Both the position numbers and the translations under genes were made by a program. This document shows positions 1,884 through 26,122 of a stretch of DNA of 36,430 nt, piece after piece (positions within the stretch are counted from its first letter, which is position 1; every line of letters starts with the position of its first letter). This DNA is from a virus, in the IMG/VR virus record IMGVR_UViG_3300045988_013705; one strand, written 5' to 3'. The notes beneath the pieces were generated by a model. That model was given only the letters and a program-made list of their open reading frames with translations. It was not told the origin of the DNA and did no database searches.

Positions 1884-4448
1884 CTAACCGCGATAGATTG
1901 CCGCTGCCACAGTCTTGGTCACAAAACGTCCAGCCACTTCGTCATCAAGCACCACGCGAACATTCTGCAATGCTTCCACGATAGCGTCCACGATATTAGC
2001 CTGAGCCCCATAGCCGTAACCATTGGAAGCCGCCTGAGCCGCTGAAACACCACCCAGATCGTACGTCTGTGCGAAAGCATCAGAGCTGGGCATTGCATCA
2101 ATCATCTGCTTAGACACATTGCCCATTTCGTCCTCGAAGCCGACCCCGATACCTTCGGCAAGATACTTGCCGACTTCATCGCGCATCAAGCGTGAAGGCG
2201 AGTGGATTCCGAAGAAGCCCTTGATGTCCTGCATGATCCCGGAAACCCAGCCGCTGACCTTGTCACGCAGCCAGCCAATGGAATTGCTGATGCCTTCCCA
2301 AACGCCAGTGACTATATTCCTTCCGATGCTGATCACTTGTCCGGGAGCTTCACGCAACGCGCTGACGATATTTCGCACGACGTTTCTAGCGCCGCTCACG
2401 ACATTGCCGATACCCCTCACGATACCGGCAGCAAGCTGCACCATCATCTGCAAGCCCGTGCTGATGATCTCAGGCAAATGCGCGCTGAGCGTGCTCACGA
2501 TCTGCATGACAATCTGCGGTTGCATCGCAATCAGCTGGGGGATAGCCTGAGTGATACCCCCAATTAGGGCAAGCAGAATCTGAATACCGGCAGTGATAAG
2601 CAACGGAAGATTATCCAGCAGAGTGTCCGTTATCTGCATCACGATACCGGGAAGCATCTGGATAAGCTCTGGCAGCGCCTGAATCAAGCCCTGCGCAAGC
2701 CCCATAAGCAACTCCATACCAGCCTGCAATATCAGCGGCAGATTCTGCAAAATCACGTCCACGATCTGCCGAACAATCGTCGGCAACATCGTAATCAGCT
2801 GCGGCAGCGCCTGAGCAAAGCCCTGAATCAGCATCGTCAGCATCTGCATACCAGCATCAAGCAGTTGAGGCAAGAGCGTGAGGATTGCTTGCACGATCTG
2901 CGGCAAGGCGGCAGTCAACGCACTCATGATCTGCGGGAGTGCCGCGACAATCGCCTGCACCACCTGAGACAGGCCATTGACGATATTCGGTACCTGAGCC
3001 GTGATAAGCGGCAACAATTGCGTCGTGATCATGTTCACGGCTTGTGGCAGCAATTGCACGGCAGACTGCACCATGCCGTTAATCAAAGGCGCGATGCGCG
3101 GCATGATATTCGACGCGAAAGTATTGACCGAATCAACAAGATTGTTGATTAAGCCGTCCATATTCGCGCCACTATCGGACATCCCGGCGAGAAGATTCTG
3201 CCAGCTAGCCTTCATGGCGTTCATCGAGCCTTCGATGGTCGTGGACGCTTCCTTGGCCGTCGTGCCGGTGATGCCCATTTGCGTCTGCACGGCATGGATA
3301 GCCTTCACCGTATCGCCAAAATCACCGATCGTGTAGTGCTCGCCGGTCAGCTTCTCAGCGTCCGCCATGAGACGCTCCATCTCAGACTTCGTACCACCAT
3401 AGCCGAGCTTCAAATTGTCAAGCATCGCATAATTGCCACGAGCCAAGCTCTGGTATGTCTGCTGGATACTCTCAATATCCGTGCCCATCTTGTTAGCATT
3501 ATCGGACATATCCTGCACAGCGGTATTACCAAGCTCAGCCGCCGCCTTCGTGTCACCACCAAGCGACTGGATCAGCGACGCCGAAAAGCCCGTGACGGTA
3601 TTCATGTACTCGTTAGCGCTCATACCAGCCGCCTTATAGGCGTTATTAGCGTAATCCTGCACGATCCCAGCGGAATCCTTGAAAAGCGTCTGCACGCCGC
3701 CCACAAGCTGCTCATTCTGCGAGTAAGCCTCGATAGCCTGCTTGCCGACATTCAGGACAGCGGAACCAAGCTGCTTAAGCCCATTGACAGCAGCACCAAT
3801 CGCACTCGTCGCAAGATTCGCCAGCACATTCTTGAAGACGGTATACCCGCCGCTAGCTTCCTGCGCCTGCCTACCACTCTTAGCAGCTTCCCCGCCAAGC
3901 TCACTAGCAGCCTTGCCCGCCTTATCCATATCAGGCGACAAGCTCTTGATCTCACTATCCGTCTTGTTGATATCCGCCTGCGCATTATTCATCTGCGTGC
4001 GCATCTTGCTCATGGCGATCCCATTGGCATTGACAGCAGCCGAAGACTTATCCACATCACGAGCTAAATTCGCCACGACTTTCGCCTGCGCCTGATACTC
4101 AGGTGATGTTTTGCCAAGCGTCGCTTCGATCTGCGCCAGCTTCTGCTTCTCAGCATCATAGCTTGCGACAAGCTCCTTATGCTTCGTATTGTTCGCAGTG
4201 TACTGCGCACTCATGGCTCGATACTGCGAGGTAAGGACGCTCAGTTTTTCCTTCTGCACAGCCATCTTGTTATTCAGCGCTTCAGTCCGTGCCGTCAATG
4301 CCGCCTGCGAATTGTCGCTCTTTGCATACTGGGAGCTGACCACCTTCATCTGTGAGCCGACCTCACGCAGATTCTGCGAGATACGCGCCAACGCCGCGCG
4401 ATATTCGCTCTCGCCCTGTAACTTAATCGCCCCGCCAAAACCTGACAC
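1884..4448 (-). CDS. Tape measure protein.
   Basis: 854 aa with a GTG start after AGGAGG. It has an N-terminal coiled-coil Q/A/K-rich region, a central hydrophobic repeat block, and sits downstream of the G/GT chaperones. Confidence 0.9.
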   Translation of the reverse strand: MSGFGGAIKLQGESEYRAALARISQNLREVGSQMKVVSSQYAKSDNSQAALTARTEALNNKMAVQKEKLSVLTSQYRAMSAQYTANNTKHKELVASYDAEKQKLAQIEATLGKTSPEYQAQAKVVANLARDVDKSSAAVNANGIAMSKMRTQMNNAQADINKTDSEIKSLSPDMDKAGKAASELGGEAAKSGRQAQEASGGYTVFKNVLANLATSAIGAAVNGLKQLGSAVLNVGKQAIEAYSQNEQLVGGVQTLFKDSAGIVQDYANNAYKAAGMSANEYMNTVTGFSASLIQSLGGDTKAAAELGNTAVQDMSDNANKMGTDIESIQQTYQSLARGNYAMLDNLKLGYGGTKSEMERLMADAEKLTGEHYTIGDFGDTVKAIHAVQTQMGITGTTAKEASTTIEGSMNAMKASWQNLLAGMSDSGANMDGLINNLVDSVNTFASNIMPRIAPLINGMVQSAVQLLPQAVNMITTQLLPLITAQVPNIVNGLSQVVQAIVAALPQIMSALTAALPQIVQAILTLLPQLLDAGMQMLTMLIQGFAQALPQLITMLPTIVRQIVDVILQNLPLILQAGMELLMGLAQGLIQALPELIQMLPGIVMQITDTLLDNLPLLITAGIQILLALIGGITQAIPQLIAMQPQIVMQIVSTLSAHLPEIISTGLQMMVQLAAGIVRGIGNVVSGARNVVRNIVSALREAPGQVISIGRNIVTGVWEGISNSIGWLRDKVSGWVSGIMQDIKGFFGIHSPSRLMRDEVGKYLAEGIGVGFEDEMGNVSKQMIDAMPSSDAFAQTYDLGGVSAAQAASNGYGYGAQANIVDAIVEALQNVRVVLDDEVAGRFVTKTVAAAIYRG
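2409..2873 (-). repeat. Internal repeats of about 44 aa (132 nt) in the tape measure gene.
   Basis: Three repeat units are visible: LPQLLDAGMQMLTMLIQGFAQALPQLITMLPTIVRQIVDVILQN, LPLILQAGMELLMGLAQGLIQALPELIQMLPGIVMQITDTLLDN and LPLLITAGIQILLALIGGITQAIPQLIAMQPQIVMQIVSTLSAH. Coordinates are approximate, derived from residue counting. Confidence 0.7.
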
Positions 4449-4460
4449 CTAAAACACCTC

Positions 4461-4718
4461 CTAGAACCATTCCTCTTCTTGTTCTTGCTTGCGTTTCATA
4501 GCCGAATACGTCGTATTACCAGCCCTCAACATGTTTTCTATGTCGAATACCTGTTGGTACGCCGCATATCTCGCCATGAAGTCCTTGAGCGTCAAACGCA
4601 TAACCTCACGATCTGAAGAAAGCCCAAGCCTTGCCCGGCCAATGAACAATATCCACGCGAAATCAATGGCCGGGTCTTGGTCAAAGTACACGTCATCGTC
4701 GTGGATTATTCGTTTTTT
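4461..4718 (-). CDS. Frameshift extension (T part) of the tail assembly chaperone; expressed as a G-T fusion by -1 frameshifting.
   Basis: The -1 frame is open from the slippery heptamer and reads KKRIIHDDDVYFDQDPAIDFAWILFIGRARLG... This matches the track ORF 4461-4691. It lies between the chaperone and the tape measure, as in the lambda gpG/gpGT arrangement. Confidence 0.75.
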   Translation of the reverse strand, partial: KKRIIHDDDVYFDQDPAIDFAWILFIGRARLGLSSDREVMRLTLKDFMARYAAYQQVFDIENMLRAGNTTYSAMKRKQEQEEEWF

Positions 4719-5053
4719 GAGCCATCCTCGGTGGAGCTAACCACGATCCCCTGCATCTGCTTCGTAATCGCGTCCATACCGACAGTGCCGATCAGTCGAC
4801 CGACCTGCTTGAGCGTGAGCGGCTTAATGTCGGTACCATTGTCTTCATTGTCGATGTCGATGCCCTCGTTGATCATTGCGGCAAAGCCGAAGATGACGGC
4901 CTTGGCATTCGGCTCGCCATTCTCTCCTTCTGTCTGCTTACCCCACTCGTCAAGAGAGCCATACTCCTCTTGGATTGCCTGCATGACATTGAGGTTGAAA
5001 GCAAGGTGATACTCGTTCCCCTTGTAGATAATCGCATCATTCTTCTTAGTCAT
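4706..5053 (-). CDS. Tail assembly chaperone (gpG-like).
   Basis: 115-aa acidic protein between the major tail and tape measure genes, with a slippery site near its 3' end. Confidence 0.8.
   Translation of the reverse strand: MTKKNDAIIYKGNEYHLAFNLNVMQAIQEEYGSLDEWGKQTEGENGEPNAKAVIFGFAAMINEGIDIDNEDNGTDIKPLTLKQVGRLIGTVGMDAITKQMQGIVVSSTEDGSKNE
4712..4718 (-). other. Programmed -1 ribosomal frameshift slippery heptamer A_AAA_AAC.
   Basis: The rc of gtttttt at 4712-4718 is aaaaaac, read in the zero frame as tc-A AAA AAC, four codons before the chaperone stop. Confidence 0.75.
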
Positions 5054-5154
5054 AATTTCCTCCTAAAAGTAAGGGCATGACATTCCCATGCCATGCCCTA
5101 ATTATCTCACGAAAAGGTCAGCCCCAAGAGCCGGTAGTGGTGACGTTCCCAGCC

Positions 5155-5721
5155 TTATTTGCCTTTGGAGGGTGTCAGCTTACCCTTGACCCACGTGACA
5201 GCAGCAGCCTTCGTGTCAAATACCTGCGCAGCCGACCAAGCGCCATTAGCCAGCGTTGCGGCAGTACCCTCGATCTCAGGCGTGGAGAATTCCATGGATT
5301 CGCCCTTGGTGTCGTCCTCCTGAGACGGCTCAGCGAAGCGCACCTTATAAAGGAATTCGCCCTTATACACGTACTTGCCGTTGACCATCTTGGTCACGAT
5401 ACGCCCAAGACCGACCCAAGGCGCTGCATCATCAGCGGAACGCACCATTTCGCTGCCAGTCTCAGCCACCTTATGACCGAGGATCTCAGCGAAGACTGTC
5501 ATATCATCATCAGCGACACCAAGCGTCACCTTCGCATTTTGAAAGCTATTATCGGATTCCACGAGCACATCATCGGCGTAAAGCGTCGCGTCATTCGTGG
5601 ACACGTCAACCTTGGCCGAGATAGCCTTACCGAAGGACTTTGCACCAGCATAAGATGCGGTACCGTCAGGGCCCTCTGTAAGGATTCCATACCACAGATT
5701 TGTCAATCCGATTTGTGCCAT
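5155..5721 (-). CDS. Major tail protein (phi13-type).
   Basis: MAQIGLTNLWYGILTEG... The ATG at 5721 lies 9 nt after AAAGGAG (the track start at 5727 is GTG). Position is upstream of the chaperones. Confidence 0.8.
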   Translation of the reverse strand: MAQIGLTNLWYGILTEGPDGTASYAGAKSFGKAISAKVDVSTNDATLYADDVLVESDNSFQNAKVTLGVADDDMTVFAEILGHKVAETGSEMVRSADDAAPWVGLGRIVTKMVNGKYVYKGEFLYKVRFAEPSQEDDTKGESMEFSTPEIEGTAATLANGAWSAAQVFDTKAAAVTWVKGKLTPSKGK

Positions 5722-5723
5722 TT

Positions 5724-6071
5724 TCACCAGCTCCTTTCACGAGCAAAATTAAGAGTGACATGGTAGTATCCGGTATCGGATTCGTACATGTCCCATTGGC
5801 TACGGGACGGTTGCCACGTCCACCCCGCTTCATTTAGTTTATCTCGTACCGCATCCGCGATAGCGAGATAGTTTGACTTTGAATAAACGTCAAAATCATA
5901 GTACGTCACCCATGCTTGGATACGGTCATCGGCGGCATACGAATTATCATCATCCTCGCGCGAAAACACCACGTAAGGCTCACCATGCCCATCATAATGC
6001 TGGAACGCCACAGGGATGACCTTGCCGCCTACCGCGAAGCCTTTGAACAGGTTTAGAATCTCTTCATTCAA
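5724..6071 (-). CDS. Tail terminator / tail completion protein (SPP1 gp17-like position).
   Basis: 115-aa ORF between the HK97 gp10-like gene and the major tail gene. Confidence 0.55.
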   Translation of the reverse strand: MNEEILNLFKGFAVGGKVIPVAFQHYDGHGEPYVVFSREDDDNSYAADDRIQAWVTYYDFDVYSKSNYLAIADAVRDKLNEAGWTWQPSRSQWDMYESDTGYYHVTLNFARERSW

Positions 6072-6075
6072 GCTC

Positions 6076-6495
6076 TCACCCCTTCGGAATATACTTGTCC
6101 TGCACTTTTTGCATCGCCGCTTCGATTTCCTGCTTTTTGAAGCTCTTGCGCATGAACGGGTGCTTTTTCACTGTGCTAGTACTACGCCCGTATTCCATGA
6201 CATTGCATACAAGTGGAGCGGGAACCGTATCGCCAGCCTTGTTCACGAAATAACCGTAGAACGCAACCTTGGTATTCACACCATCATCAGAAGGTGTCCG
6301 GTATACTCGCGTTATCTTCAAGCAGGACATGATATCGGAATCACGGAAGCTAGGCGGGACATTCGCCTGCACGCTCTTCAACACGGCTTCAGCGCCCGCC
6401 TGCGTCATCTCGCCCAGCATCTTCTGAGTATCGGCGCCCAACTGTTCAAATGTCTTTATCAGCTCTTCAGGCATTGCCGCATCGAACTGAGCCAT
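6076..6495 (-). CDS. HK97 gp10-family neck / tail-component protein.
   Basis: 139 aa, with its start overlapping the stop of the upstream gene. It ends with a ...KKHPFMRKSFKK... motif typical of the HK97 gp10 family. Confidence 0.65.
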   Translation of the reverse strand: MAQFDAAMPEELIKTFEQLGADTQKMLGEMTQAGAEAVLKSVQANVPPSFRDSDIMSCLKITRVYRTPSDDGVNTKVAFYGYFVNKAGDTVPAPLVCNVMEYGRSTSTVKKHPFMRKSFKKQEIEAAMQKVQDKYIPKG

Positions 6496-6824
6496 CAGTG
6501 TGTCACCGCCTTCGCTTGAAGCTCAATCTCTATATTCGCTTCATTAACATTATTTACGTATTCGATAGTGTAGGCCTTACCATTGTATTCGATAAGCATA
6601 TCCCGGTCGATAGTCGTATTGCCGGGATACCTGATCGTGAAATTCGTCAAAGCTTTTTCAAAGTCACTGTCATTCTGAATCAGTGTAAAGCCTCTGGTTG
6701 TCTTGACGTGAGCGTAAGGCTCTAAGATTACCTCGCGGCTGGACGTTGGGAACCCATCTTTATCAGTGGTCTGCACGTCCTTGACAATCCTGATTCTGTG
6801 ATCGTACCGTCCTGCGTTAATCAT
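6495..6824 (-). CDS. Head closure / head-tail joining protein (SPP1 gp16-like).
   Basis: 109 aa starting MINAGRYDHRIRI..., with a pattern typical of head-tail adaptor proteins. Confidence 0.7.
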   Translation of the reverse strand: MINAGRYDHRIRIVKDVQTTDKDGFPTSSREVILEPYAHVKTTRGFTLIQNDSDFEKALTNFTIRYPGNTTIDRDMLIEYNGKAYTIEYVNNVNEANIEIELQAKAVTH

Positions 6825-10505: not shown

Positions 10506-12209
10506 CTAGATGACTTGTGCTACGAAGTCCATATGATTAAAGTCTACGTCCTGCTGAAGCAAATACATAGCGTTAATCAAGCTCACGACCATATCGACTT
10601 TCCCCTTCGATTTCTTCTTGTGTACATACATGTTTTTGTTCGTGTCGTAGGTGCATCGAGCGTTCTGGAAATTAATCTCTAGCAAGCGGTTAGGCTCATA
10701 CTCAAACTCTTTCTTCAAAATCTTTTCCTTGAGCAATTTCGTCGGCGGGTGAAGCGTGGAAGAATGCTGACGAATCTCTACCGTCTGGTATCCAGCAGCT
10801 TCAAGCTTCTGCGCAGTACTAAGCGCATTCCAGCGGTCATAGCCGATAGCCTGCACACGCACGCCGAAACGTTCCTCAATGCCCATGATGAAGTCCTCGA
10901 CCACCTTGTAATCAATCACCTTGTCACCGCACGCGATACACTTCCCTGCACGGATAAACTGCCGGTAGTCGATTTTCTCGAAGGCGTTCTTTTCGCCAAT
11001 ACGACCTTCAGGCACGAATGCGAAAACGTCAGCAAGCACGTTATCGTCATCGTCAACACCGACCATAGCAACCGAGGTATTATCGTTTGTCTCCGACAAG
11101 TCAAGCCCAAGATAAACCGTGCGTCCAGCCCAATCGATATGCGAGACTTTACACGCCTGCACATCATTAACGTCGATATAAGTCTCGGTTTCAGCACCCT
11201 GATAGATGATATTGCAGTGCTTCGTGAGAAAATTCTCACGAGCCGATTCCACCGCGACAGCGTAAGCCCGCTTCTTCTTAAGGTCTTCCCAGATTTCCGG
11301 TATCTCCAAGGACGCTGGGTTAGCCTGACGCATTATCAAATCGTCTTCCGTCCAGTTCTTAGGATTATCCGGCTCATACAATAGGGCGAAACGTGACGGG
11401 TCATCGATAATACCGTCAAGCACCTTCTTCGAATACGCCACTTCGTCCTCGAACGGGTTATCCACAGTAGGATACTTGGTCGAAATGATGAAGCCCAGCT
11501 TATTGAGGATATTCAGCTGTCCAGAGCGCATGGCTTCAATCGCGTATGACGTTGGCAATGCGCCAACTTCGTCAGCACAGAAGGCGTTAGGAAGCCTACC
11601 GTCCATGCGGCTAGTCGAATAGCTGAGCGGGATATATGTCGTGCTGAGCGGCTTGAAGGTGATTGAATCCCGTAGAATCTTCCACCGCGCCACGTCCTTG
11701 AACGCGAACACTTCAGGCGAACTCTTCAAAGTCTCGCTAATCGCTTCGCGCACCTCACGCGACAGAGTACCGTCTGGAGCCACCGAGTAAAATTTACTAA
11801 AACGCGGTTCAGTCAAAAACAACAGAATGAAAATCGTGGCGATGGTGTACGTTTTGAAGTTCTTTCGCGCAATCTCCAGCACGCACGTCTCATACTTGCG
11901 CTTAGCCGGATTATCCCTGCGAACCGTGCAAAGAGTGGCAGTATAGAACAGCCACTGATAGCCGGTAGTGCAATCATATAGCGATTGTCCGGCACGCAAT
12001 CCCTTCGGCATACGAAGTACCTTCAGAATTGCATAGAGTTGCTTAATCTTGCGATGGCTCACGAAATACGTATCGTCCTTGCCATCGCAAACAGCCAGCC
12101 ACGCCTTCATCTGCTTCTTCACATACTTAGGCGTGGTCGGCTCATTCACACACTTCACACAATACTCATAACCCTTATTCTCCATCTTCATCTTCCTCGG
12201 TTTCGCCAT
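10506..12209 (-). CDS. terL: Terminase large subunit (Terminase_1 type).
   Basis: 567 aa following the P27-type small subunit. The start is ambiguous (12209, 12191 or 12185); the ATG at 12185 has the best GAGGAA spacing. Confidence 0.85.
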   Translation of the reverse strand: MAKPRKMKMENKGYEYCVKCVNEPTTPKYVKKQMKAWLAVCDGKDDTYFVSHRKIKQLYAILKVLRMPKGLRAGQSLYDCTTGYQWLFYTATLCTVRRDNPAKRKYETCVLEIARKNFKTYTIATIFILLFLTEPRFSKFYSVAPDGTLSREVREAISETLKSSPEVFAFKDVARWKILRDSITFKPLSTTYIPLSYSTSRMDGRLPNAFCADEVGALPTSYAIEAMRSGQLNILNKLGFIISTKYPTVDNPFEDEVAYSKKVLDGIIDDPSRFALLYEPDNPKNWTEDDLIMRQANPASLEIPEIWEDLKKKRAYAVAVESARENFLTKHCNIIYQGAETETYIDVNDVQACKVSHIDWAGRTVYLGLDLSETNDNTSVAMVGVDDDDNVLADVFAFVPEGRIGEKNAFEKIDYRQFIRAGKCIACGDKVIDYKVVEDFIMGIEERFGVRVQAIGYDRWNALSTAQKLEAAGYQTVEIRQHSSTLHPPTKLLKEKILKKEFEYEPNRLLEINFQNARCTYDTNKNMYVHKKKSKGKVDMVVSLINAMYLLQQDVDFNHMDFVAQVI

Positions 12210-12558
12210 TAATCAACGCAAGTAGCGGGTCAACATCATCACCGTCACGTTCAGCGTCAGACTTGCCGAAGCCTTGAATGATCTTCATAAGGGTTGTGAC
12301 AGTGCGGTTGGCGCTGTCAGTGGTCGTATTGTATTCACGGACAGCCGGGTTAGTGTAAAGGTTCTTGCGTCCCTTCACATACTCCTTCTTCACCAGCATA
12401 CCGTCTTGCTCAATCGACTTTTCCAAGTCGTTGAGAATCTTGATTTGCACTTGATAGCGTTTAAAGGTGGTGACAAAAAAGAAATTAGTCTGGACGCCTG
12501 TTTCCTCGGCTATTTGCAGAATCTCGACAGCCTGCTCCTGAAGATTCTTGCCCCTCAT
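12175..12558 (-). CDS. terS: Terminase small subunit (P27 family).
   Basis: Starts MRGKNLQEQAVEIL, contains ...YTNPAVREYN... and ends in an acidic tail. The ATG at 12558 shares one nt with the stop of the MetK-like gene. The track also allows a start at 12573. Confidence 0.75.
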   Translation of the reverse strand: MRGKNLQEQAVEILQIAEETGVQTNFFFVTTFKRYQVQIKILNDLEKSIEQDGMLVKKEYVKGRKNLYTNPAVREYNTTTDSANRTVTTLMKIIQGFGKSDAERDGDDVDPLLALINGETEEDEDGE

Positions 12559-13388
12559 CAAAACAACCCCCATTCCGCAAGTTTCTCAAAACCACCGACA
12601 GTATCGAAAACATACTGCCGAGCTTTACGCACGATCTCCGAGTAAGGGACTCCATTCACTTCGCTGTCACCAATGGCGCAACAAAGCGAGACAACCTTCC
12701 CAGTCTTCTGTGCGAGAAGATGCGCATAAATATTCACCGAAACGTCCGCCTTGCTCAAGTCCTTACCATGCAAGCCGCCACCAGTCACAGCGTCACCCAT
12801 GTCGGATCCGAGCTTGCGATTCGTCGCACCTGTATCCACATCGGTTCCACCAGTCCACGAGCCGAGAGGATTCACGACAATATCATAGCCAAACGGGTTC
12901 CGCCCGCATGATTCAAGCCCGCTGACAATGCTTTCCGCGAGTCTCCCATCATCGGCACACGACTGGCAGGCGATGAATTTACCGCCGCTCATGACGAACT
13001 TGCCGTCCGTTGGGTACTCGTCATACAGAGCATGGACGATACGGGAAATATCCTTCTGCTCGCGAGTTAGCGGCACGCCCTTGAAAATGCCATTGTCACC
13101 GCACTTGATGCCGTCCGACTGGTTATCTGCGAGATGCCGGTCTTGCGGAACTTCCCTGTAATCAATCTCGATTCCATCAACTCCAGTGATACGACTCACA
13201 ACACTTCTGATGACAGCGTCCGGAATCGGCACACTAGTCTCCGCGATTACATGGCACACGCCATGCCCGATAAGCACCTCGACAGCGATACGAGGTGACA
13301 TATCAAGTTCATACGCATAATCTACGAGAGCACCAGCAATCCTGTCAGCCACCTTGTCAGGATGACTTGGATTAACTTTTTCAATCAT
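12558..13388 (-). CDS. metK: Shortened S-adenosylmethionine synthetase (MetK)-like protein, 276 aa.
   Basis: Three motifs match MetK: SHPDKVADRIAGALVD, KCGDNGIFKG and GGTDVDTGATNRKLGSDMGDAVTGGGLHGKDLSKADVS, aligning with GHPDKxCDQ, GAGDQG and GLTGRK...GGGAFSGKDPSKVDRS. The ATG at 13388 lies 9 nt after GGAGGA. Confidence 0.7.
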   Translation of the reverse strand: MIEKVNPSHPDKVADRIAGALVDYAYELDMSPRIAVEVLIGHGVCHVIAETSVPIPDAVIRSVVSRITGVDGIEIDYREVPQDRHLADNQSDGIKCGDNGIFKGVPLTREQKDISRIVHALYDEYPTDGKFVMSGGKFIACQSCADDGRLAESIVSGLESCGRNPFGYDIVVNPLGSWTGGTDVDTGATNRKLGSDMGDAVTGGGLHGKDLSKADVSVNIYAHLLAQKTGKVVSLCCAIGDSEVNGVPYSEIVRKARQYVFDTVGGFEKLAEWGLF

Positions 13389-13393
13389 TCTTA

Positions 13394-14590
13394 TCAATCC
13401 TCCACTTTCACAGCTTCCATGCCAGTGAGCTTCTCCCACCTATCGACAATCACGTCGGCATACTTCGGGTCGTACTCCATAACTCGCGCCCTGCGCCCAT
13501 TCTGCTCGCACGCGATAATAGTCGTGCCGCTGCCACCGAACAGGTCTAAAACGATATCGTTCTTTGCGCTGCTATTGCGAATCTGATAGTCGAACAATCC
13601 GACTGGCTTCATCGTCGGATGCAGATCGGCCTTTGCTGGCCTGTCCCAATCAATGACAGTCGTCTGCTTCCTGTCCCCATACCAGTTATGAGACCCAGTC
13701 CCCTTCCAGCCGTAAAGGCACGGCTCATGCTTCCACTGGTAATCCTGCCGTCCCATGACGAGCGAGTTCTTATTCCAAATCAGCTCCTGCTTGACTGTAA
13801 GCCCGGCATCCTCGATGGCGGTTGCGAAATTCACGACCTCCTTGCTCGCATACCAGACATAGAATGCCGCCCCGTCAGCCATCGCGTCGTAGGCATTGCC
13901 AAACGCTGCGAGAAGGAAATCATGGAAGACACCGGCATCCATGCTGTCGTTCTCGATTTTCATCGCCTTGGCGCTCTTGCCAGTGTAATCGACGTTGTAA
14001 GGCGGATCCGTGATAAGAAGTGCAGCTCTCTCACCACCTCCTGCCTGCATGAGCTTGCGAACATCATCTGGTTTCGTACTGTCACCGCACATCAAGATAT
14101 GGTTGCCGAGCCGATACACATCGCCCAGCTTCGTCACCGGTTCAGCTGGCGGATCAGGAACATCCTCGTCAGCATCACTACCAGCCAAATCACTGCCAAT
14201 GCCAAGATCGCCAAGGTCTACATCGTCGAAACCGAAATCGCTCATGTCAATGTCATCGATGCCGTTAAGCTCGATATCCAACTTGCCCAAATCCCACTCG
14301 GCAAGCTCGGCCGTCTTGTTATCCGCAAGACGAAACGCCTTCACCTGCTCGGACGTGAGATCATCAGCGACGATGACAGGCACCTTATCCAAGCCCAGTT
14401 TCTTCGCAGCCTTCAACCTCGTGTGACCTGTGACGATAACACCGTCAGCATCAACGACAATAGGCACCTTGAAGCCGAATTCCTTGATGGAAGCCGCCAC
14501 AGCGTCCACCGCACCATCATTAAGCCGCGGATTATTGGCATACGGGTTCAAATCCGCTACATTCCTGTATTCCACTTTCAGATTGTCCAT
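13394..14590 (-). CDS. ParB-like nuclease-domain protein fused to a DNA methyltransferase (DPPY motif; N6-adenine or N4-cytosine class).
   Basis: The N-terminus reads YANNPRLNDGAVDAVAASIKEFGFKVPIVVD...GHTRLKAAKKLG (ParB N-domain). It is followed by ITDPPYNVDY and, near the C-terminus, VLDLFGGSGTT. Confidence 0.85.
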   Translation of the reverse strand: MDNLKVEYRNVADLNPYANNPRLNDGAVDAVAASIKEFGFKVPIVVDADGVIVTGHTRLKAAKKLGLDKVPVIVADDLTSEQVKAFRLADNKTAELAEWDLGKLDIELNGIDDIDMSDFGFDDVDLGDLGIGSDLAGSDADEDVPDPPAEPVTKLGDVYRLGNHILMCGDSTKPDDVRKLMQAGGGERAALLITDPPYNVDYTGKSAKAMKIENDSMDAGVFHDFLLAAFGNAYDAMADGAAFYVWYASKEVVNFATAIEDAGLTVKQELIWNKNSLVMGRQDYQWKHEPCLYGWKGTGSHNWYGDRKQTTVIDWDRPAKADLHPTMKPVGLFDYQIRNSSAKNDIVLDLFGGSGTTIIACEQNGRRARVMEYDPKYADVIVDRWEKLTGMEAVKVED

Positions 14591-14800
14591 GAATATCAAT
14601 CCTTTCTATATCGTTTACTTGGCACCTAAATTTTTATCAAGCTTTATCACGCTTTATTCAAGTGTATCAACGGTTTTCAGCACGTTATCGAGGGTTTTTC
14701 CAAAAAAGAACGCAAACCAGATATTTTGTACTCAGAGGTGGGCGGTTGGTGTTGGTTGAGTCGAGTTTAATGGGTGGTCTGACCCGGGGGGGATGCTTTG

Positions 14801-15169
14801 TTAGTTTTCGGTGTGTCGTTTTTTTGCTAGTTGTTTGAGGTAGGTTGGGTTTATTTCGCCTGCGTCTGCTTGTTTGTGGTGTGGTATGCATAGGCAGATT
14901 AGGTTATCGTCATCGGTTAGGAGGTCTGGTGCTTGGTTGAGTTTGACTATATGGTGTACTTCTAGCCCTTTGTTTGTGATGCTGCCTTTATCGGCGCATA
15001 CTTCGCATAGGTAGTGTGCGTCTTGTTTGATCTGGTCGCGTTTCTTTTGCCACTTGTACGTGTCTCTTAGATGGTCTGCGCTTGTCTTGTGGTAGTGTCT
15101 AGCTGGTTTCTTTTGGCATTTCTCGTTCATCTGGTGCATTCGTCCACAGTATCCACATGCCTTGAGCAT
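14801..15169 (-). CDS. HNH endonuclease (packaging-associated type).
   Basis: Contains MLKACGYCGRMH...CEVC...LEVHHIVKL...NLICLCIPHHKQ. RBS is AAGGTGAG. The gene lies upstream of the terminase region. Confidence 0.8.
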   Translation of the reverse strand: MLKACGYCGRMHQMNEKCQKKPARHYHKTSADHLRDTYKWQKKRDQIKQDAHYLCEVCADKGSITNKGLEVHHIVKLNQAPDLLTDDDNLICLCIPHHKQADAGEINPTYLKQLAKKRHTEN

Positions 15170-15230
15170 TGTCTCACCTTCTCTTGGTATGGTTGAGCCG
15201 CTGTCCATTGTTGGTGCAGCGGCTCGATTG

Positions 15231-15461
15231 TCACTTGGTTTCCGTGTTGTCGGGTTTGGCTGTTGCGTGGCTGATACCTATGAGTGAACCGATCAGGACG
15301 CCGATTGCGTTGATTGTCGCTACGATTGCGTCCGTATCAGTCCAGCCCCATACGCTGCCGAGCACGCCGATGAATGTTGCTAGTGCTGGGAAAGCGATCA
15401 GTCCAGCCCACTTGAGGATTTCGTATGCCTTGCTTGATAGGATATAGGTTTTATCGTCCAT
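15231..15461 (-). CDS. Holin candidate (Dp-1-type pattern, two TM segments).
   Basis: 76 aa: ...YEILKWAGLIAFPALATFIGVLGSVWGWTDTDAIVATINAIGVLIGSLIGIS... with a charged C-terminus. RBS is GGAGGAA. Confidence 0.6.
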   Translation of the reverse strand: MDDKTYILSSKAYEILKWAGLIAFPALATFIGVLGSVWGWTDTDAIVATINAIGVLIGSLIGISHATAKPDNTETK

Positions 15462-15477
15462 TATTGTTCCTCCGTTT

Positions 15478-15552
15478 TCAGTGCTTGCCGATTACCGTGA
15501 TGATAATCAGTGTCGCGCAGATAATGCTTGTGATTGTGATTGCGGTGTTCAT
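15478..15552 (-). CDS. 24-aa hydrophobic peptide (MNTAITITSIICATLIIITVIGKH).
   Basis: The ATG at 15552 lies 7 nt after GAAAGGA. It has a single TM-length hydrophobic stretch and sits immediately upstream of the holin candidate. It is below the 60-aa track cutoff. Confidence 0.4.
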   Translation of the reverse strand: MNTAITITSIICATLIIITVIGKH

Positions 15553-15579
15553 GGTTTTGTCCTTTCTGTTGGTGCTATT

Positions 15580-15963
15580 CTAGTCTGATAGATGCACTAC
15601 GGCTTTGCGCTGTGCAACGTCCATGTTGGCTTGGGCTTCATGCACTTTATCCCGCGCCGCCTCAACATTTCCGTTGAGTTTGCCGTGCTGCAAGGCGATT
15701 AAACAGATTTCGTTTGCCGCTAGGCTCGCGTCTATGCCTTTGAGCATGGCCTCATAAAGGTATTGTCTCTCGTTGTGTTGCTGGTCGCGTTTTGCTTCCA
15801 TCATTGCTTGCTGTGCGCGGTATTGTGCGTCCTGTATGTCGCGTTGCTTCATTCTGTTGTTGCCGACGTATGTGATGATGGCAACGAATATGCTGGATAC
15901 TGCCGCGCAGCCGCTTGTTACGATGGCGACGATTACCTCTGTGCTAAGTCCCATGTTTTTCAA
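15580..15963 (-). CDS. Membrane-anchored coiled-coil protein (N-terminal TM segment).
   Basis: 127 aa with TM segment VIVAIVTSGCAAVSSIFVAIITYV, followed by a charged helical region. The start is either TTG 15963 or ATG 15954. Confidence 0.55.
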   Translation of the reverse strand: MKNMGLSTEVIVAIVTSGCAAVSSIFVAIITYVGNNRMKQRDIQDAQYRAQQAMMEAKRDQQHNERQYLYEAMLKGIDASLAANEICLIALQHGKLNGNVEAARDKVHEAQANMDVAQRKAVVHLSD

Positions 15964-15967
15964 TCTC

Positions 15968-16007
15968 TAATCACTCGCTTTTTCTAATTGTGATTATATC
16001 GTGATTA
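15968..16007. promoter_or_regulatory. Operator-like 7-mer repeats (TAATCAC / GTGATTA x2) overlapping AT-rich -10-like hexamers on both strands.
   Basis: TAATCAC lies at 15968-15974, and GTGATTA at 15990-15996 and 16001-16007. The rc of attata at 15993-15998 is TATAAT (minus strand). TGaTTATAT lies at 15991-15999 (plus strand). Confidence 0.4.
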
Positions 16008-16009
16008 GC

Positions 16010-16118
16010 ATGGGATTTGCGGGACATTTCGCGTGCTATACTTGTCGTGTACTCATTTTGGGTATTCCTTTCTTTGTCAGTTAGGGCATGGCTTTTGGCC
16101 ATGCCCTTTTCCTTTTAC
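16010..16118 (+). other. Orphan plus-strand mini transcription unit: either a small RNA of about 60-70 nt or a near-leaderless 24-aa hydrophobic ORF (16010-16084), ending in an intrinsic terminator.
   Basis: An extended -10, TGcTATACT, lies at 16034-16042. The ORF is ATG 16010 ... TAG 16084, reading MGFAGHFACYTCRVLILGIPFFVS. A hairpin (16083-16092 paired with 16098-16107) is followed by TTTCCTTTT. Confidence 0.3.
16083..16118 (+). terminator. Intrinsic terminator hairpin; the T-tract is on the plus strand only.
   Basis: agggcatggc-ttttg-gccatgccct forms a 10-bp perfect stem, followed by tttccttttac. On the minus strand it is followed by aactgac, with no U-tract. Confidence 0.6.
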
Positions 16119-16486
16119 TTCTGGTGCAGTTCCGGCTCTGGCTCGCTTCCTGCTGTGCCATCGTCCCACAAGTAGCATCTGCCCCACTTCCAGTGGTCTA
16201 CCGGTACCTTGTGTGGGTCATTGTAGCTGTGTACTAGCCAGCCATGCTCGTAGGCTTCTTTTGGGTGCATGTGTACCCAGCCGTGACAGCCGACACTACC
16301 ACTCCCACAGAGATATATCAGGTTGGACGCATTATGTAGCCCGCTCCAGCCGTGTGACCTCATACGACGATGATGTAGGCTAGCCATTGCTCCATACAAG
16401 GGTTTCCCACATCGGACGCAGCATTGCATGTCCCTTCCGGCGCAGATGGAGCGTGTCGCTGGTGTCGGGTTCGTGGCCTTGCTCAT
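16115..16486 (-). CDS. HNH-like Cys/His nuclease.
   Basis: 123 aa containing CCVRCGKP...SLHHRRMRSHG...NLIYLCGSGSVGCHGWVH. Confidence 0.55.
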   Translation of the reverse strand: MSKATNPTPATRSICAGRDMQCCVRCGKPLYGAMASLHHRRMRSHGWSGLHNASNLIYLCGSGSVGCHGWVHMHPKEAYEHGWLVHSYNDPHKVPVDHWKWGRCYLWDDGTAGSEPEPELHQK

Positions 16487-20770: not shown

Positions 20771-21544
20771 CTAATACGCGACTGCCTCGGCGCGGGTGAT
20801 GAAGAAGTGGATGCCCGAAGCGCACGCAGTCCACCGGTCAGGGTCGAAGCCGTTAGCTTCCACCGTGTCACCAAGCCTATATGTAAATTCCGGATCGTGT
20901 ACGCTGTACGCAACGATATCAGGCTTGAGACTGTTGCCGTCAGGGTCTTGCAGATCAAGCACTCGTGCTTTGTTGGCGCGGCATTTGCGCCACATGGTGT
21001 TGGAGCGTTGAGCGTCGGACGGAATAAGCAGCTTTACAATGACGGGCTTCTCGTCTCTTGTCCGCGCTTTTTTCCAGCCGATGATGTCGCCTTCATCTGG
21101 CATTATGCGCGACTGCGCCTCGATAAGGTCTGCGCCGTTGGCATTGCGCAGGCTGGCACCATTCAGGTTCGCGCCACGCAGGTCGGAGTAGCACAGGTCT
21201 GCATCACATAGGTCTGCACCAAACAGGCCTGCACCACTCAGGTTCGCGCCACGCAGGTTCGCATGGTACAAATTTGCAAAGGTTAGGTTCGCGCCACGCA
21301 GGTCGGAGTAGCACAAGTTTGCATTGCGCAGGTTCGCATTGCGCAGGCACACGCCGCTCAGGTTGGCACCACGCAGGTAGGCATTGCGCAGGTTCGCATT
21401 GCGCAGGCTGGCACCACGCAAGTCGGCATTGCTTAAGTCAAACTCATGCAGGACGGCACCACGTAGGCAGTCGCGCCCGTATTTTTCGAGGATTGCCTCG
21501 ATGCTTTCGCCTTCAAGGATTCCTTTTGCTGTGTGGATTTTCAT
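20771..21544 (-). CDS. Pentapeptide-repeat protein with a non-repeat C-terminal domain.
   Basis: About 20 consecutive A(D/N)LxG-type pentapeptides (NADLRGASLRNANLRNAYLRGANLSGVCLRNANL...). These are followed by a C-terminal domain of about 115 aa ending ...CASGIHFFITRAEAVAY. Confidence 0.85.
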   Translation of the reverse strand: MKIHTAKGILEGESIEAILEKYGRDCLRGAVLHEFDLSNADLRGASLRNANLRNAYLRGANLSGVCLRNANLRNANLCYSDLRGANLTFANLYHANLRGANLSGAGLFGADLCDADLCYSDLRGANLNGASLRNANGADLIEAQSRIMPDEGDIIGWKKARTRDEKPVIVKLLIPSDAQRSNTMWRKCRANKARVLDLQDPDGNSLKPDIVAYSVHDPEFTYRLGDTVEANGFDPDRWTACASGIHFFITRAEAVAY

Positions 21545-22169: not shown

Positions 22170-22240
22170 CACACCGGGCAGGAATCGCACCTGCGCCTGC
22201 GGTTTTGGAGACCGCCATGCTACTACTGCACCACCGGCAT
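22170..22240 (-). tRNA. tRNA-Trp(CCA)-like gene with non-canonical D and T loops.
   Basis: The minus strand folds as ATGCCGG-TG-GTGC-AGTAGTA-GCAT-G-GCGGT-CTCCAAA-ACCGC-AGGC-GCAGG-TGCGATT-CCTGC-CCGGTGT-G. It is a complete 71-nt cloverleaf with a 7-bp acceptor stem (two G-U pairs), U8, U33, anticodon CCA and discriminator G. The D loop lacks GG, and the T loop is TGCGATT rather than TTCRANN. No CCA tail is encoded. Confidence 0.55.
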
Positions 22241-24824: not shown

Positions 24825-25517
24825 TTACTCAGCGTACTTCCAATGATACCCGCCAGCCGTCTTTGACTTGCCGCGCAGCACGTTAGAAATATTCTTGAAT
24901 GAAATATCAAGCTGTCTACCAGCTTCGGAGAGTGACTTGTATATTTCGCCAGTTTCGACACACAGCACCTTTTTGCTCGTAGCTTCGGTCATAGCAAGAA
25001 TCACATGCTCGCTGACTTTTTTCCCCTTACGAGCTTCGCTCATTTTCCGCCGTGTCTCGACGCTTAGTGGTTTCCCCCTCAGCTTCATGCTTATCTTCTG
25101 CCTTGTTTCATCGCTGGGGCGCTTACCTCTGTGAGCTTCAGCAGCTTTTATGATGCACTCATCGCTGGGGTGCTTACCTTTACGCGCTTTGCTGAGTTTT
25201 TTGCGAGTTACATCGCTTGGATGTACACCCAAGCTCCCACATTCTCCACCGATGCTGTGGTTGTATCCTTTGTTGTGATTAGTGCTGTCGAAATATTTAA
25301 TAAGCGATTGTTCTACTCTGCAAGCCTGCCATTTGCTGAGGCCATTGCAAACGATTTCGTGCTTGATGTTCTCCCAGCCGTATTTCAGGATTGCACTATA
25401 GAAATGCTTGTTCTGTTTATACCCGCTGCCACTCTGCCAGCGTTTCTCGGGCTTATTCTTTGTTATCCCGATATACACTTTTCCGCTTGGCGTGGTATGC
25501 TTATAAACGACGTACAT
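24825..25517 (-). CDS. Free-standing GIY-YIG homing endonuclease with NUMOD3 repeats and a C-terminal HTH.
   Basis: The GIY-YIG domain is MYVVYKHTTPSGKVYIGITKN...YSAILKYG...E. Repeats follow (HPSDVTRKKLSKARKGK, RPSDETRQKISMKLRGK, LSVETRRKMSEARKGK). The C-terminus is ...YKSLSEAGRQLDISFKNISNVLRGKSKTAGGYHWKY. RBS is AAGGAG. Confidence 0.85.
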   Translation of the reverse strand: MYVVYKHTTPSGKVYIGITKNKPEKRWQSGSGYKQNKHFYSAILKYGWENIKHEIVCNGLSKWQACRVEQSLIKYFDSTNHNKGYNHSIGGECGSLGVHPSDVTRKKLSKARKGKHPSDECIIKAAEAHRGKRPSDETRQKISMKLRGKPLSVETRRKMSEARKGKKVSEHVILAMTEATSKKVLCVETGEIYKSLSEAGRQLDISFKNISNVLRGKSKTAGGYHWKYAE

Positions 25518-25552
25518 GGTTACTCCTTGTATGCTCTTGATAATATGCAATC

Positions 25553-25616: not shown

Positions 25617-26027
25617 CTATCTGCCGGTCGAGCCAAAGCCGCTATCACCACGCTCACCGCCACTGATGCTATCCACGATTTCAAGCGGCTCATAGCTCAC
25701 CGGGATCACGACCAATTGCGTGACCTTGTCACCAGCCGCGAAAGCATAATCCGTGTCGCTGTGATTGTACAAGCGTACAATAATATGCCCAGTAAAGCCT
25801 TCGTCTACAAGTCCAGTGCTCGTGATGCCATGCTTGACGTTAAGCCCGCTCTTGCTCACGATCAGTCCAGCACAGCCCTGTGGTAACTCGACGTGTGTCT
25901 TAGTGTCGATAACGACGCTTCCGTGTGCGGGGACGGTTACGGCTACCGGCGTGCGTAGATCCATGCCAGCGTCGGTATCGTGACCTCGTGATGGCTTATA
26001 AGCTGATTCTTCCAACATGATCTTCAT
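25617..26027 (-). CDS. dut: dUTPase (trimeric type).
   Basis: Contains MKIMLEE...GHDTDAGMDL...GLIVSKSGL...GLVDEGFTGHI...GERGDSGFGSTGR. RBS AAGGAG precedes the ATG at 26027. The longer track ORF overlaps ssb. Confidence 0.85.
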   Translation of the reverse strand: MKIMLEESAYKPSRGHDTDAGMDLRTPVAVTVPAHGSVVIDTKTHVELPQGCAGLIVSKSGLNVKHGITSTGLVDEGFTGHIIVRLYNHSDTDYAFAAGDKVTQLVVIPVSYEPLEIVDSISGGERGDSGFGSTGR

Positions 26028-26122
26028 TTTGTATGCTCCTTGCATTAAGGTATTTAATTTGGCAAATGGCGGGGTACGGCTTTGAGTTTGGCACCGTCCC
26101 CGCCATTTAATGCCGTCCACTA

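Follow-up and report, generated by a model that had tools for sequence, protein, structure and literature searches.

A SAM synthetase of 353 aa encoded by the streptococcal prophage Phi1207.3 was suggested in 2014 to supply a neighbouring methylase (PMC4260502). In viromics papers a SAM synthetase gene of phages is regarded as a cysteine/methionine-metabolism auxiliary gene (PMC11283538; PMC13644194); among Ca. Heliusvirales, 58.9% of the genomes score for it as K00789 (PMC11283538). A Bacillus cereus prophage possesses an HNH-TerS neighbourhood which includes a ParB-methyltransferase and a C5 methyltransferase (PMC3592412). Phage T3 encodes a SAMase, studied in relation to restriction and BREX, that degrades SAM and inhibits the host MetK; Type I and Type III restriction and BREX themselves use SAM as a cofactor (10.1101/2023.02.27.530186).

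The window, that is, the whole stretch of 36,430 nucleotides of DNA of a temperate phage that was analysed (IMG/VR record IMGVR_UViG_3300045988_013705), carries on its minus strand a series of genes in the order HNH endonuclease, ParB-N6/N4 DNA methyltransferase, 276-aa MetK-like protein (hereafter mini-MetK), TerS-like protein and TerL (Table 1). The tight coupling of the mini-MetK gene on both sides and the location of the gene pair between the HNH endonuclease and the terminase, both proposed in a first-pass annotation of this DNA, were confirmed. The methyltransferase gene ends with a TGA at 13396-13394, leaving a spacer of 5 nt to the mini-MetK ATG at 13388, which is preceded by a GGAGG 11 nt upstream. 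An alternative in-frame GTG exists at 13439, and position 13388 was retained as the start because close homologues all begin with MIEKVNP. At the other end, the mini-MetK stop (TGA, 12560-12558) shares one nucleotide with the ATG of the TerS-like gene in the sequence TGATG at 12558, so that the latter gene is predicted to be translationally coupled to the mini-MetK stop. An alternative ATG of the TerS-like gene at 12573 would extend the overlap to 16 nt and yield a product of 132 aa, as compared with 127 aa from the ATG at 12558; in relatives, gene callers pick either start.

Table 1. Features of the packaging gene region and active-site motifs of mini-MetK (positions refer to the window).
Feature	Position	Strand	Basis or remark
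Large terminase subunit (TerL)	10506..12209	-	TerL_nuclease 7e-40, TerL_ATPase 1.2e-07 (Pfam)
Probable small terminase subunit (TerS-like)	12175..12573	-	Weak Pfam match, PHROG, position
Mini-MetK, S-adenosylmethionine synthetase homologue, 276 aa	12558..13388	-	Sequence, profile, predicted structure
DTGATNRK...GGGLHGKDLSKAD, residues 185-215	12744..12836	-	HMMER to PDB MetK chains, MAFFT, invariance
DGK motif, residues 128-130	12999..13007	-	K130 = E. coli Lys165 (MAFFT, AF2 secondary-structure order)
GDNG motif, residues 97-100	13089..13100	-	D98 = E. coli Asp118 (MAFFT)
SHPDK motif, residues 8-12	13353..13367	-	H9, D11, K12 = E. coli His14, Asp16, Lys17 (MAFFT)
Orphan DNA methyltransferase, 398 aa	13394..14590	-	Pfam, PHROG
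Non-coding gap, 210 bp, between HNH and methyltransferase genes	14591..14800	.	Candidate cos and/or late-operon start
HNH endonuclease, type accompanying cos-type terminases	14801..15208	-	Pfam HNH 2.5e-05, PHROG 144 at 6e-22

The gene located directly upstream of TerL, an arrangement also present in two related loci (L166 and L167), may encode a small terminase subunit, mainly on account of its position. When the ORF 12175-12561 (128 aa) was used as query, the match to Terminase_4 (E 0.0011) was under the Pfam cutoff, and the best PHROG match was to a family of unknown function (PHROG 13845, 3e-47), followed by the TerS family PHROG 5110 (3.5e-4). The non-coding gap upstream of the methyltransferase gene contains a run of seven C and repeated TGATAAAGC-like words, GC and AT skew flip near 14600, and one related contig terminates 148 bp upstream of its methyltransferase. 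This gap is thus a candidate for the genome end (cos) and/or the start of the late operon. Since promoter and terminator scans of positions 12000-16200 gave nothing above shuffled background, the operon boundaries are inferred ones. When the 10 kb surrounding the module were compared with GenBank phages by megablast, no match was obtained, and therefore no close sequenced relative was available.

The protein encoded upstream of mini-MetK had been annotated as an orphan DPPY methyltransferase with a ParB domain, in agreement with Pfam matches to ParB_N (approximately 14327-14551; 2.5e-07, 31.1 vs. 26.3 bits) and N6_N4_Mtase (approximately 13445-14020; 9.4e-24, 85 vs. 26.7 bits). The DPPY motif is found at residues 195-198 and is followed by FGGSG at about residue 342, which is the order of the beta class. 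Judging from its motifs and domains, the protein is a beta-class enzyme of the N6-adenine/N4-cytosine type with an N-terminal ParB domain. It matches PHROG 498 (1.9e-159), its nearest solved structure is a DpnA-type adenine methyltransferase (5hfj), and full-length homologues with 37-44% identity lie beside MetK genes in Javan105, TPDSL_ph1, NatCom_27610 and phiNJ3. Non-specific methylation of the M.EcoGII type was also considered as a source of high SAM demand, and was dropped as evidence, as M.EcoGII (349 aa) contains no extra domain (PMC5778455) and hence lacks the ParB domain. Two plasmid methyltransferases with single-strand specificity, M.EcoGIX and M.BceJIII, were likewise considered and then set aside, since a ParB fusion was not established in the paper text.

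Different lines of evidence relate mini-MetK to S-adenosylmethionine synthetases. The N-terminal MetK domain was detected by Pfam (S-AdoMet_synt_N, PF00438; E 2.6e-10, 41.2 bits vs. a cutoff of 33.1), whereas the central and C-terminal domains (PF02772 and PF02773) were undetected in the same search, and the TIGR01034 score (48.2 bits) was far under the equivalog cutoff of 309.4. PHROG 1569 matches mini-MetK over residues 1-276 (E 1.8e-66), and PDB MetK chains match it in two stretches (E 1e-11). An AlphaFold2 monomer model (pLDDT 85, pTM 0.86) displays three beta-alpha-beta-beta-alpha-beta repeats, and the protein is therefore predicted to adopt the three-repeat fold of MetK; similarity to the three MetK domains, for which the first-pass annotation asked, is thus recovered in the model, but only for the N-terminal domain by Pfam. 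The structural search called for in that annotation agrees with this: the 50 best Foldseek matches in the PDB were all MetK/MAT chains (TMq 0.64-0.78; top matches 0.70-0.78, E 3e-15), with alignments spanning about 340-370 columns for MetK chains of about 372-384 residues, while a Foldseek search of predicted viral structures (BFVD) gave nothing significant. A SAM lyase identity was also considered and rejected, as MetK/MAT was the only identity obtained with Pfam, with PDB sequences and with Foldseek; PDB 8bb1 appears among the Foldseek matches via its MetK chain. Mini-MetK shares about 24% identity with E. coli MetK, and the size difference of roughly 100 aa noted earlier corresponds to 108 missing residues, distributed in 17 small in-frame deletions across the three repeats, all of which are trimmed and none of which is lost. 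Compared with the E. coli enzyme, mini-MetK is devoid of the last 23 residues, of the loop at 127-137 and of the hairpin at 173-182.

The active site appears to have been spared by this reduction. The motifs SHPDKVADRIAGALVD, KCGDNGIFKG and DTGATNRKLGSD...GGGLHGKDLSKADVS, recognised in the first reading of the sequence, are all found in mini-MetK, and the alignment also bore out the integrity of the catalytic Lys, Asp, His and Arg residues. In addition to the residues H9, D11, K12, D98 and K130 listed in Table 1, E37 corresponds to E. coli Glu42, Q82, just upstream of GDNG, to the gating-loop Gln98, and D185, R191, K192, K209, K213 and D215 to Asp238, Arg244, Lys245, Lys265, Lys269 and Asp271, respectively. 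Altogether, the 13 residues which we take, from the MetK mutagenesis and structure literature, to form the active site (E. coli mature numbering) are identical in mini-MetK, and each of them is invariant in 120/120 close relatives. The least certain assignment is K130, because a global hhalign alignment placed this segment differently; the region 100-170 was aligned by MAFFT, in agreement with the AlphaFold2 secondary structure and in disagreement with hhalign. The loop comprising residues 185-194 showed low pLDDT in the monomer model, which we attribute to its location at the dimer interface, presumably as in known MetK structures. MetK catalysis needs dimer formation, and the active site of mini-MetK would likewise be dimeric.

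Mini-MetK belongs to a family of short proteins of about 260-276 aa that corresponds to PHROG 1569, annotated as "unknown function". Members occur in 593 or more contigs of IMG/VR and in 572 or more species genomes of GTDB, and the family forms 199 clusters at 50% identity (E<=1e-30). The best 120 relatives listed measure 260-293 aa, nearly all of them 260-276 aa. The dN/dS ratio of mini-MetK against a relative at dS 0.57 was 0.10, pointing to purifying selection. No structure or enzymology of a short-form MetK was found in the searchable literature, nor is there a PDB entry for it, the solved MATs matched being all of 377-430 aa. The claim that the shortened architecture is uncharacterised therefore holds in this respect; nevertheless, the short form is very common and already counted as K00789, and the idea of a phage SAM supply dates from 2014, which makes its novelty moderate.

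A survey of gene neighbourhoods, also proposed in the first-pass annotation, revealed a homologous ParB-methyltransferase directly adjacent to the short MetK in 87 out of the 118 loci that were informative. Broken down by dataset, 48/56 IMG/VR loci and 39/62 GTDB loci have the homologous ParB/N6_N4 methyltransferase gene on the same strand and no more than 300 bp away, both gene orders are seen, and the same pairing occurs in the named phages Javan105, TPDSL_ph1 and NatCom_27610. In 51/118 loci there is also a homologue of a C5 methyltransferase, which often follows the ParB-methyltransferase. Loci devoid of the ParB-methyltransferase frequently have a different SAM-using neighbour, namely a C5 methylase or a radical-SAM/SPASM protein.

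Some gut bacteria also carry the short MetK gene in the chromosome. Two bacterial chromosomes show a leader ahead of this gene, composed of a sigma-70-like promoter, then a SAM-I riboswitch that scores 60.8 and 54.1 bits (gathering score 44.4), and an intrinsic terminator. A leader of this type controls metK in Firmicutes. A search with a SAM-I core regular expression over 167 loci (L001-L167) and the window identified only these two (L133 and L140), and the sole Rfam match in the window was a tRNA, so that the phage copy of mini-MetK is without a SAM riboswitch. The control of chromosomal copies by SAM-I riboswitches suggests that the product is SAM itself. Genes other than metK are also found under S-box leaders. 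Both the SAM-using nature of the alternative neighbours and these riboswitches strengthen the case made in the first-pass annotation.

The explanation that we consider probable is that mini-MetK is a miniaturised, catalytically complete methionine adenosyltransferase supplying phage DNA methylation before packaging. In this view, its gene opens the late packaging operon together with that of the ParB-fused amino-methyltransferase, to which it is coupled both in transcription and in translation, and the enzyme would convert ATP and L-methionine into SAM. During late infection or after induction, phage SAM would be made outside the feedback control of host SAM, allowing many new genome copies to be methylated just ahead of packaging by the terminase. 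By analogy with the biology of orphan methyltransferases, progeny DNA methylated in this manner might escape restriction on entering the next host. The roles against BREX-type defence and SAM depletion proposed in the first-pass annotation found no support. It is also less evident what advantage would be selected, because a 36-kb phage with a sequence-specific methyltransferase needs little SAM. Moreover, more SAM is not automatically good for the phage, since Type I/III restriction and BREX use it. A more far-reaching version, which we regard as a tentative and rather doubtful proposal, holds that the 260-276-aa form is the smallest functional SAM synthetase, serving as an S-box-regulated housekeeping MetK in some uncultured gut Bacillota, and that temperate phages repeatedly captured it as a private SAM generator because the dense methylation by their ParB-fused and multispecific methyltransferases would otherwise be limited by host SAM; as an indication of scale, each copy of the genome contains 17,643 adenines on both strands.

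An unlikely alternative, though the foremost of those considered, is that mini-MetK is an active SAM synthetase acting as a general auxiliary metabolic gene, which raises SAM for a variety of uses, for instance the methylation of RNA or proteins, polyamines or radical-SAM chemistry, and that its adjacency to the methyltransferase reflects co-transfer in a mobile cassette. This would fit the viromics papers, in which the gene is labelled simply as auxiliary (PMC11283538; PMC13644194), as well as the absence of the ParB-methyltransferase from 20/62 genome (GTDB) loci and the location of chromosomal copies beside unrelated genes (hrcA, rplU and an alpha/beta hydrolase gene). In addition, dS between two related phages was 0.57 for MetK and 0.16 for the methyltransferase, suggesting that both genes can be exchanged separately. 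Against it, the adjacency in most IMG/VR loci, in both orders and with frames overlapping or nearly so, is the pattern expected under selection for co-expression.

Altered chemistry, in which the protein would use another nucleotide or amino-acid substrate or produce a SAM analogue for a non-methyl DNA modification, is quite improbable. Close to the substrate pocket, the family has invariant substitutions of its own (GDNG in place of GDQG, F102 in place of M, and LHGKD in place of AFSGKD), and its invariant C96, N99, F102, K103 and H207 lie beside substrate-contacting motifs; together with the distance of its profile score from canonical MetK, these changes might indicate altered specificity. 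However, Q82, D185 and I239, equivalent to E. coli Q98, D238 and I302, presumably the methionine and adenine contacts in MetK, are retained, the riboswitches of the chromosomal copies point to SAM, and the partners are ordinary DPPY and C5 methyltransferases.

We give very little weight to a non-catalytic MetK mimic which, through binding to SAM, to the host MetK or to a defence protein, would lower or sense SAM, with an outcome analogous to that of the T3 SAM lyase. The T3 SAMase demonstrates that phages target host MetK (10.1101/2023.02.27.530186), and some catalytic residues are lost in a few divergent members of the family (P0183, P0199, P0186 and P0137). On the other hand, a mere binder would have no need of the 13 catalytic residues that are invariant in the window's clade, the gene adjoins SAM consumers, and some copies are chromosomal and riboswitch-controlled. 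Finally, a decaying, truncated metK pseudogene, as the missing 108 aa and the detection of one of three Pfam domains could suggest, is refuted, in line with the first-pass annotation, by the intact frame with scattered in-frame deletions, the low dN/dS, the narrow length range of the large family and the coupling of start and stop to the neighbouring genes.

Should its activity be confirmed, mini-MetK would be about 30% smaller than all SAM synthetases found that have been solved or characterised; it would define a minimal MetK core and might be a compact scaffold for the enzymatic synthesis of SAM or SAM analogues. Widespread temperate phages of the gut, including Ca. Heliusvirales, would then bring methyl donor supply and methyltransferase as one cassette, unlike phages of the T3 type, by which SAM is destroyed. 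A further question, raised by the chromosomal copies under riboswitch control, is whether some bacteria depend on the mini enzyme alone.

Compared with known systems, mini-MetK has in common with bacterial MetK (EC 2.5.1.6; E. coli, 384 aa, 1fug/7ll3; Ureaplasma, 6rk5/6rkc) the predicted fold and the 13 active-site residues, including the gating-loop Gln, and differs from the solved MATs matched in its size. Firmicutes metK and the chromosomal short-MetK relatives are alike in their S-box type of leader. The MetKs of streptococcal phages (Phi1207.3 orf29, 353 aa; phiNJ3_26, 345 aa) occupy the same niche between replication genes and terminase, but they contain all three Pfam MetK domains, unlike mini-MetK, with which they share about 27% identity. 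A streptococcal phage also encodes a ParB-N6/N4 methyltransferase with 37% full-length identity to that of the window, although in phiNJ3 the MetK gene is not directly adjacent to it. Within the same niche and methyltransferase family, the streptococcal enzymes of 345-353 aa and mini-MetK form a graded size series.

The prophage of B. cereus ATCC 10987 (Bce_0389-0393) resembles the window in having HNH, TerS and ParB-methyltransferase genes ahead of TerL, and its ParB-methyltransferase fusion is of the same architectural class (PMC3592412; PMC5512222). Nicking activity has been reported for its ParB domain. The window differs from this cassette in having no C5 methyltransferase and in the order methyltransferase-MetK-TerS, whereas in B. 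cereus Bce_0391 lies between TerS and the ParB-methyltransferase. Lastly, the T3 SAM lyase represents a phage-encoded manipulation of the SAM pool, as proposed here for mini-MetK, in the opposite direction.

By sequence, the 276-aa protein encoded beside the terminase genes (hereafter, the short MetK) is a distant MetK. Pfam recognized its N-terminal MetK domain only, TIGR01034 gave 48 bits where its cutoff is 309, and PDB MetK chains matched two separate segments, residues 3-61 and 170-228 (E about 1e-11); PHROG 1569, labelled "unknown function", covered the protein over its full length (1.8e-66). An AlphaFold2 model made from 43 relatives (pLDDT 85, pTM 0.86) displays three beta-alpha-beta-beta-alpha-beta repeats, and all 50 best Foldseek matches in the PDB were MetK/MAT chains (E down to 3e-15, TMq 0.64-0.78), aligned over nearly the whole target. 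Every matched PDB chain was 377-430 aa long, and no member of the short family was found among the PDB entries.

Residues were mapped onto E. coli MetK through a MAFFT alignment that agrees with the secondary structure of the model, using the active-site set of the mutagenesis and structural literature (mature-protein numbering). H9, D11 and K12 correspond to E. coli H14, D16 and K17; E37 to E42; Q82 to Q98; D98 to D118; D185, R191 and K192 to D238, R244 and K245; K209, K213 and D215 to K265, K269 and D271; and K130 to K165, the least certain of these assignments because global hhalign put that segment elsewhere. Each mapped residue is unchanged in every one of 120 close relatives. E. coli MetK has 108 residues that lack a counterpart, distributed over 17 separate gaps of 1-23 residues in all three repeats, the biggest being the C-terminal 23 residues and positions 127-137, 341-351 and 173-182 (initiator Met counted). 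This scatter rules out a truncation, and judged from the alignment the protein is a miniaturised MetK. A dN/dS of 0.10 at a dS of 0.57, calculated against a 90%-identical relative, indicates that it is under selection.

The gene order and tight coupling described in the first-pass annotation were confirmed by the ORF coordinates (see table), by the 5 nt separating the methyltransferase stop (13396-13394) from the MetK ATG (13388), which is preceded 11 nt upstream by GGAGG, and by the TGATG at 12558, where the MetK stop overlaps the TerS ATG; every MetK motif quoted there was found in the protein. An alternative TerS start at 12573 would give a 16-nt overlap with MetK, and gene callers picked either start in relatives.

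Features of the terminase-proximal module in the window and of the riboswitch-preceded short MetK genes in two bacterial MAG loci
Sequence	Feature	Position	Strand	Remarks
Window	HNH endonuclease	14801-15208	-	first in module order
Window	Gap	14591-14800		210 bp; separates HNH from methyltransferase
Window	ParB_N + N6_N4_Mtase protein	13394-14590	-	398 aa
Window	MetK-like protein	12558-13388	-	276 aa
Window	TerS-like protein		-	127 or 132 aa; between MetK and TerL
Window	TerL	10506-12209	-	
L140	Leader and gene	5819-6798		promoter-like site, 11/12 matches
L140	SAM-I riboswitch	5855-5938		60.8 bits
L140	Intrinsic terminator	5947-5972		start codon at 6001
L133	Leader and gene	4218-5187		promoter-like site, riboswitch, terminator
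L133	SAM-I riboswitch	4252-4342		54.1 bits; terminator next, gene start at 4408

The window (36.4 kb) appears to span the entire, circularly permuted genome of a temperate siphovirus, encoding portal, capsid, TerL, tail, lysin, ERF and YqaJ recombination proteins, a dUTPase and a serine integrase. The gap upstream of the methyltransferase is a candidate for a cos site or for the end of the genome. It includes a C7 run along with recurring TGATAAAGC-like words, and close to position 14600 both the GC skew and the AT skew switch abruptly; in L166, a related contig of 25 kb, the sequence stops 148 bp ahead of the methyltransferase gene. Elsewhere in the genome, a tRNA gene (22170-22240, minus strand; Rfam, 56 bits) lies within the early/replication region, and a homing-endonuclease-like ORF with NUMOD3 and I-HmuI-like DNA-binding motifs (24825-25550, minus strand) adjoins the dUTPase gene (25617-26144). 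A 257-aa protein with pentapeptide repeats and DUF5758 (20771-21544, minus strand) is a possible anti-defence gene product, since pentapeptide-repeat proteins can mimic DNA. A 123-aa Cys/His-rich ORF (16115-16486, minus strand; CVRCGK...HHRR...CGSGSVGCHGWVH), without a Pfam match, resembles a second HNH or zinc-finger nuclease.

The family is widespread. In a collection of 5.8 billion proteins, the best 120 relatives, drawn from at least 8000 candidates, measure 260-293 aa, nearly all of them 260-276 aa, and 199 clusters of a 50%-identity library match at E<=1e-30. No fewer than 593 IMG/VR stretches encode a relative, as do 572 or more GTDB species genomes; among the matches listed, these genomes belong mostly to Clostridia, Enterococcus and Erysipelotrichaceae. 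GenBank phages carrying the gene, mostly annotated as hypothetical, include Streptococcus "Javan" prophages, Terrisporobacter phage TPDSL_ph1, and Oscillospiraceae and Acutalibacteraceae "NatCom" phages of Ca. Heliusvirales. Two kinds of variants were also observed. Four divergent members of 261-271 aa (P0183, P0199, P0186 and P0137), possibly non-catalytic offshoots, have lost several catalytic residues (e.g., SHPDK replaced by SANINK, and the NRK and GKD lysines gone). Five others of 346-415 aa (P0166, P0177, P0179, P0181 and P0208) retain the same core, into which approximately 60-130 aa are inserted behind the second pair of strands; in two of the five the C-terminal tail is Cys-rich (CKNCKT, CDSCKN).

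Where the gene had 1.5 kb or more of flanking sequence on both sides, a ParB/N6_N4 methyltransferase was found within 300 bp on the same strand at 48 of 56 IMG/VR loci and 39 of 62 GTDB genome loci, and a C5 methyltransferase homologue at 31 of the 56 and 20 of the 62. MetK followed by the methyltransferase is the commonest order; L030, L038, L166 and L167 share the methyltransferase-MetK-TerS-TerL order of the window. The methyltransferases accompanying MetK in Javan105, TPDSL_ph1, NatCom_27610 and phiNJ3 are homologous to the window's over their full length (37-44% identity). Comparison of 12558-14590 with L166:149-2181 yielded a dS of 0.57 for MetK and 0.16 for the neighbouring methyltransferase, and this inequality suggests recombination within the cassette.

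In 20 genome loci without a ParB/N6_N4 methyltransferase, nine direct downstream neighbours, one per locus, were scanned with Pfam. Three of the nine are radical-SAM/SPASM proteins of 454-480 aa that come immediately after the short MetK in non-phage surroundings (both genes together at L093:5992-8253, L116:2532-4705 and L157:5911-8115), L093 having an MCRA oleate hydratase gene upstream and an ABC1 kinase gene downstream. The others are a C5 methylase (L098), HrcA (L107), a CmpB-type transporter protein, an alpha/beta hydrolase and two proteins without a Pfam match. L094 and L096 are the same as L093 across the gene, L101 has a C5 methylase match by tblastn, and L118 and L148, whose downstream ORFs equal the radical-SAM proteins in size, probably carry the same pair. 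With methyltransferases, radical-SAM proteins and C5 methylases as neighbours, the short MetK recurrently adjoins SAM consumers, and beside a radical-SAM enzyme it could be that enzyme's dedicated SAM supply.

Some copies are chromosomal. Directly downstream of a tRNA gene, a non-phage locus is kept in several species-level genomes (L107 and the similar L103, L121 and L132), its short MetKs being 82-92% identical among themselves; chromosomal copies are 68-77% identical to phage-linked ones, with every motif kept. In L107 (5883-11437) the single gene lies between the tRNA and hrcA, with argS upstream, and hrcA is followed by a 170-aa ORF, dnaK (HSP70) and a 380-aa ORF; Pfam confirmed hrcA, dnaK and argS only, and position and size point to grpE and dnaJ for the two ORFs. 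L121 and L132 likewise show the upstream tRNA, followed downstream by a 345-350-aa ORF. In two bacterial MAG chromosomes (L140 and L133), an S-box leader comprising a promoter-like site, a SAM-I riboswitch and an intrinsic terminator directly precedes the gene, which in L140 is followed by the rplU operon (L21 leader, ribosomal genes). Leaders of the S-box type govern genes for methionine and SAM, metK among them, in Firmicutes. Of the comparative evidence for SAM synthesis by the family, we regard the riboswitch-controlled copies as the strongest.

We propose that a compact SAM synthetase and an orphan methyltransferase of the beta class (DPPY) would be co-expressed by the phage from the start of the late operon, so that SAM production would escape feedback by the host during the methylation of numerous genome copies ahead of packaging. 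The data establish the homology and fold of the protein, conservation of its active site, selection on it, its gene linkage and the riboswitch control of relatives; beyond this, the short MetK would presumably act with the proposed timing as a dimeric SAM synthetase, and the methylation may be protective. A weak point of the proposal is quantity: a sequence-specific methyltransferase needs little SAM, and the SAM pool would come under strain only if methylation were dense and of low specificity. Counting both strands, the window contains 17,643 adenines.

The first-pass reading of a shortened MetK coupled to a methyltransferase was largely right and the finding is real; the pair is no rarity, being a common, already-annotated cassette, and the supply hypothesis had been put forward before. 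The new insight is that these enzymes form a coherent miniaturised MetK subfamily that retains the whole active site, is associated with SAM users of various kinds and, in certain bacteria, lies on the chromosome under riboswitch control. In the literature searched, which takes in few subscription journals, no publication was found that deals with the short form's enzymology or its structure. In 2014, a 353-aa three-domain SAM synthetase was described near a ParB-methylase and a C5 methylase in Phi1207.3, whose authors suggested methyl donor supply (PMC4260502). In Ca. Heliusvirales, S-adenosylmethionine synthetase (K00789) and C5 methyltransferase were reported in 2024 as auxiliary metabolic genes in 58.9 and 67% of genomes, respectively (PMC11283538), and a virome study of 2026 gave the role of phage SAM synthetase as undetermined (PMC13644194). 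The T3 SAM lyase does the opposite job (10.1101/2023.02.27.530186). A related B. cereus ParB-methyltransferase, encoded beside a multispecific C5 enzyme, is reported to nick DNA non-specifically (PMC5512222, PMC3592412). The B. cereus ATCC 10987 prophage region Bce_0389-0398 encodes HNH, TerS, ParB-MTase, C5 MTase and then TerL, and Bce_0391, given no name there, lies between TerS (0390) and the ParB-MTase (0392) (PMC3592412), exactly the position of the short MetK in TPDSL_ph1 and NatCom_27610.
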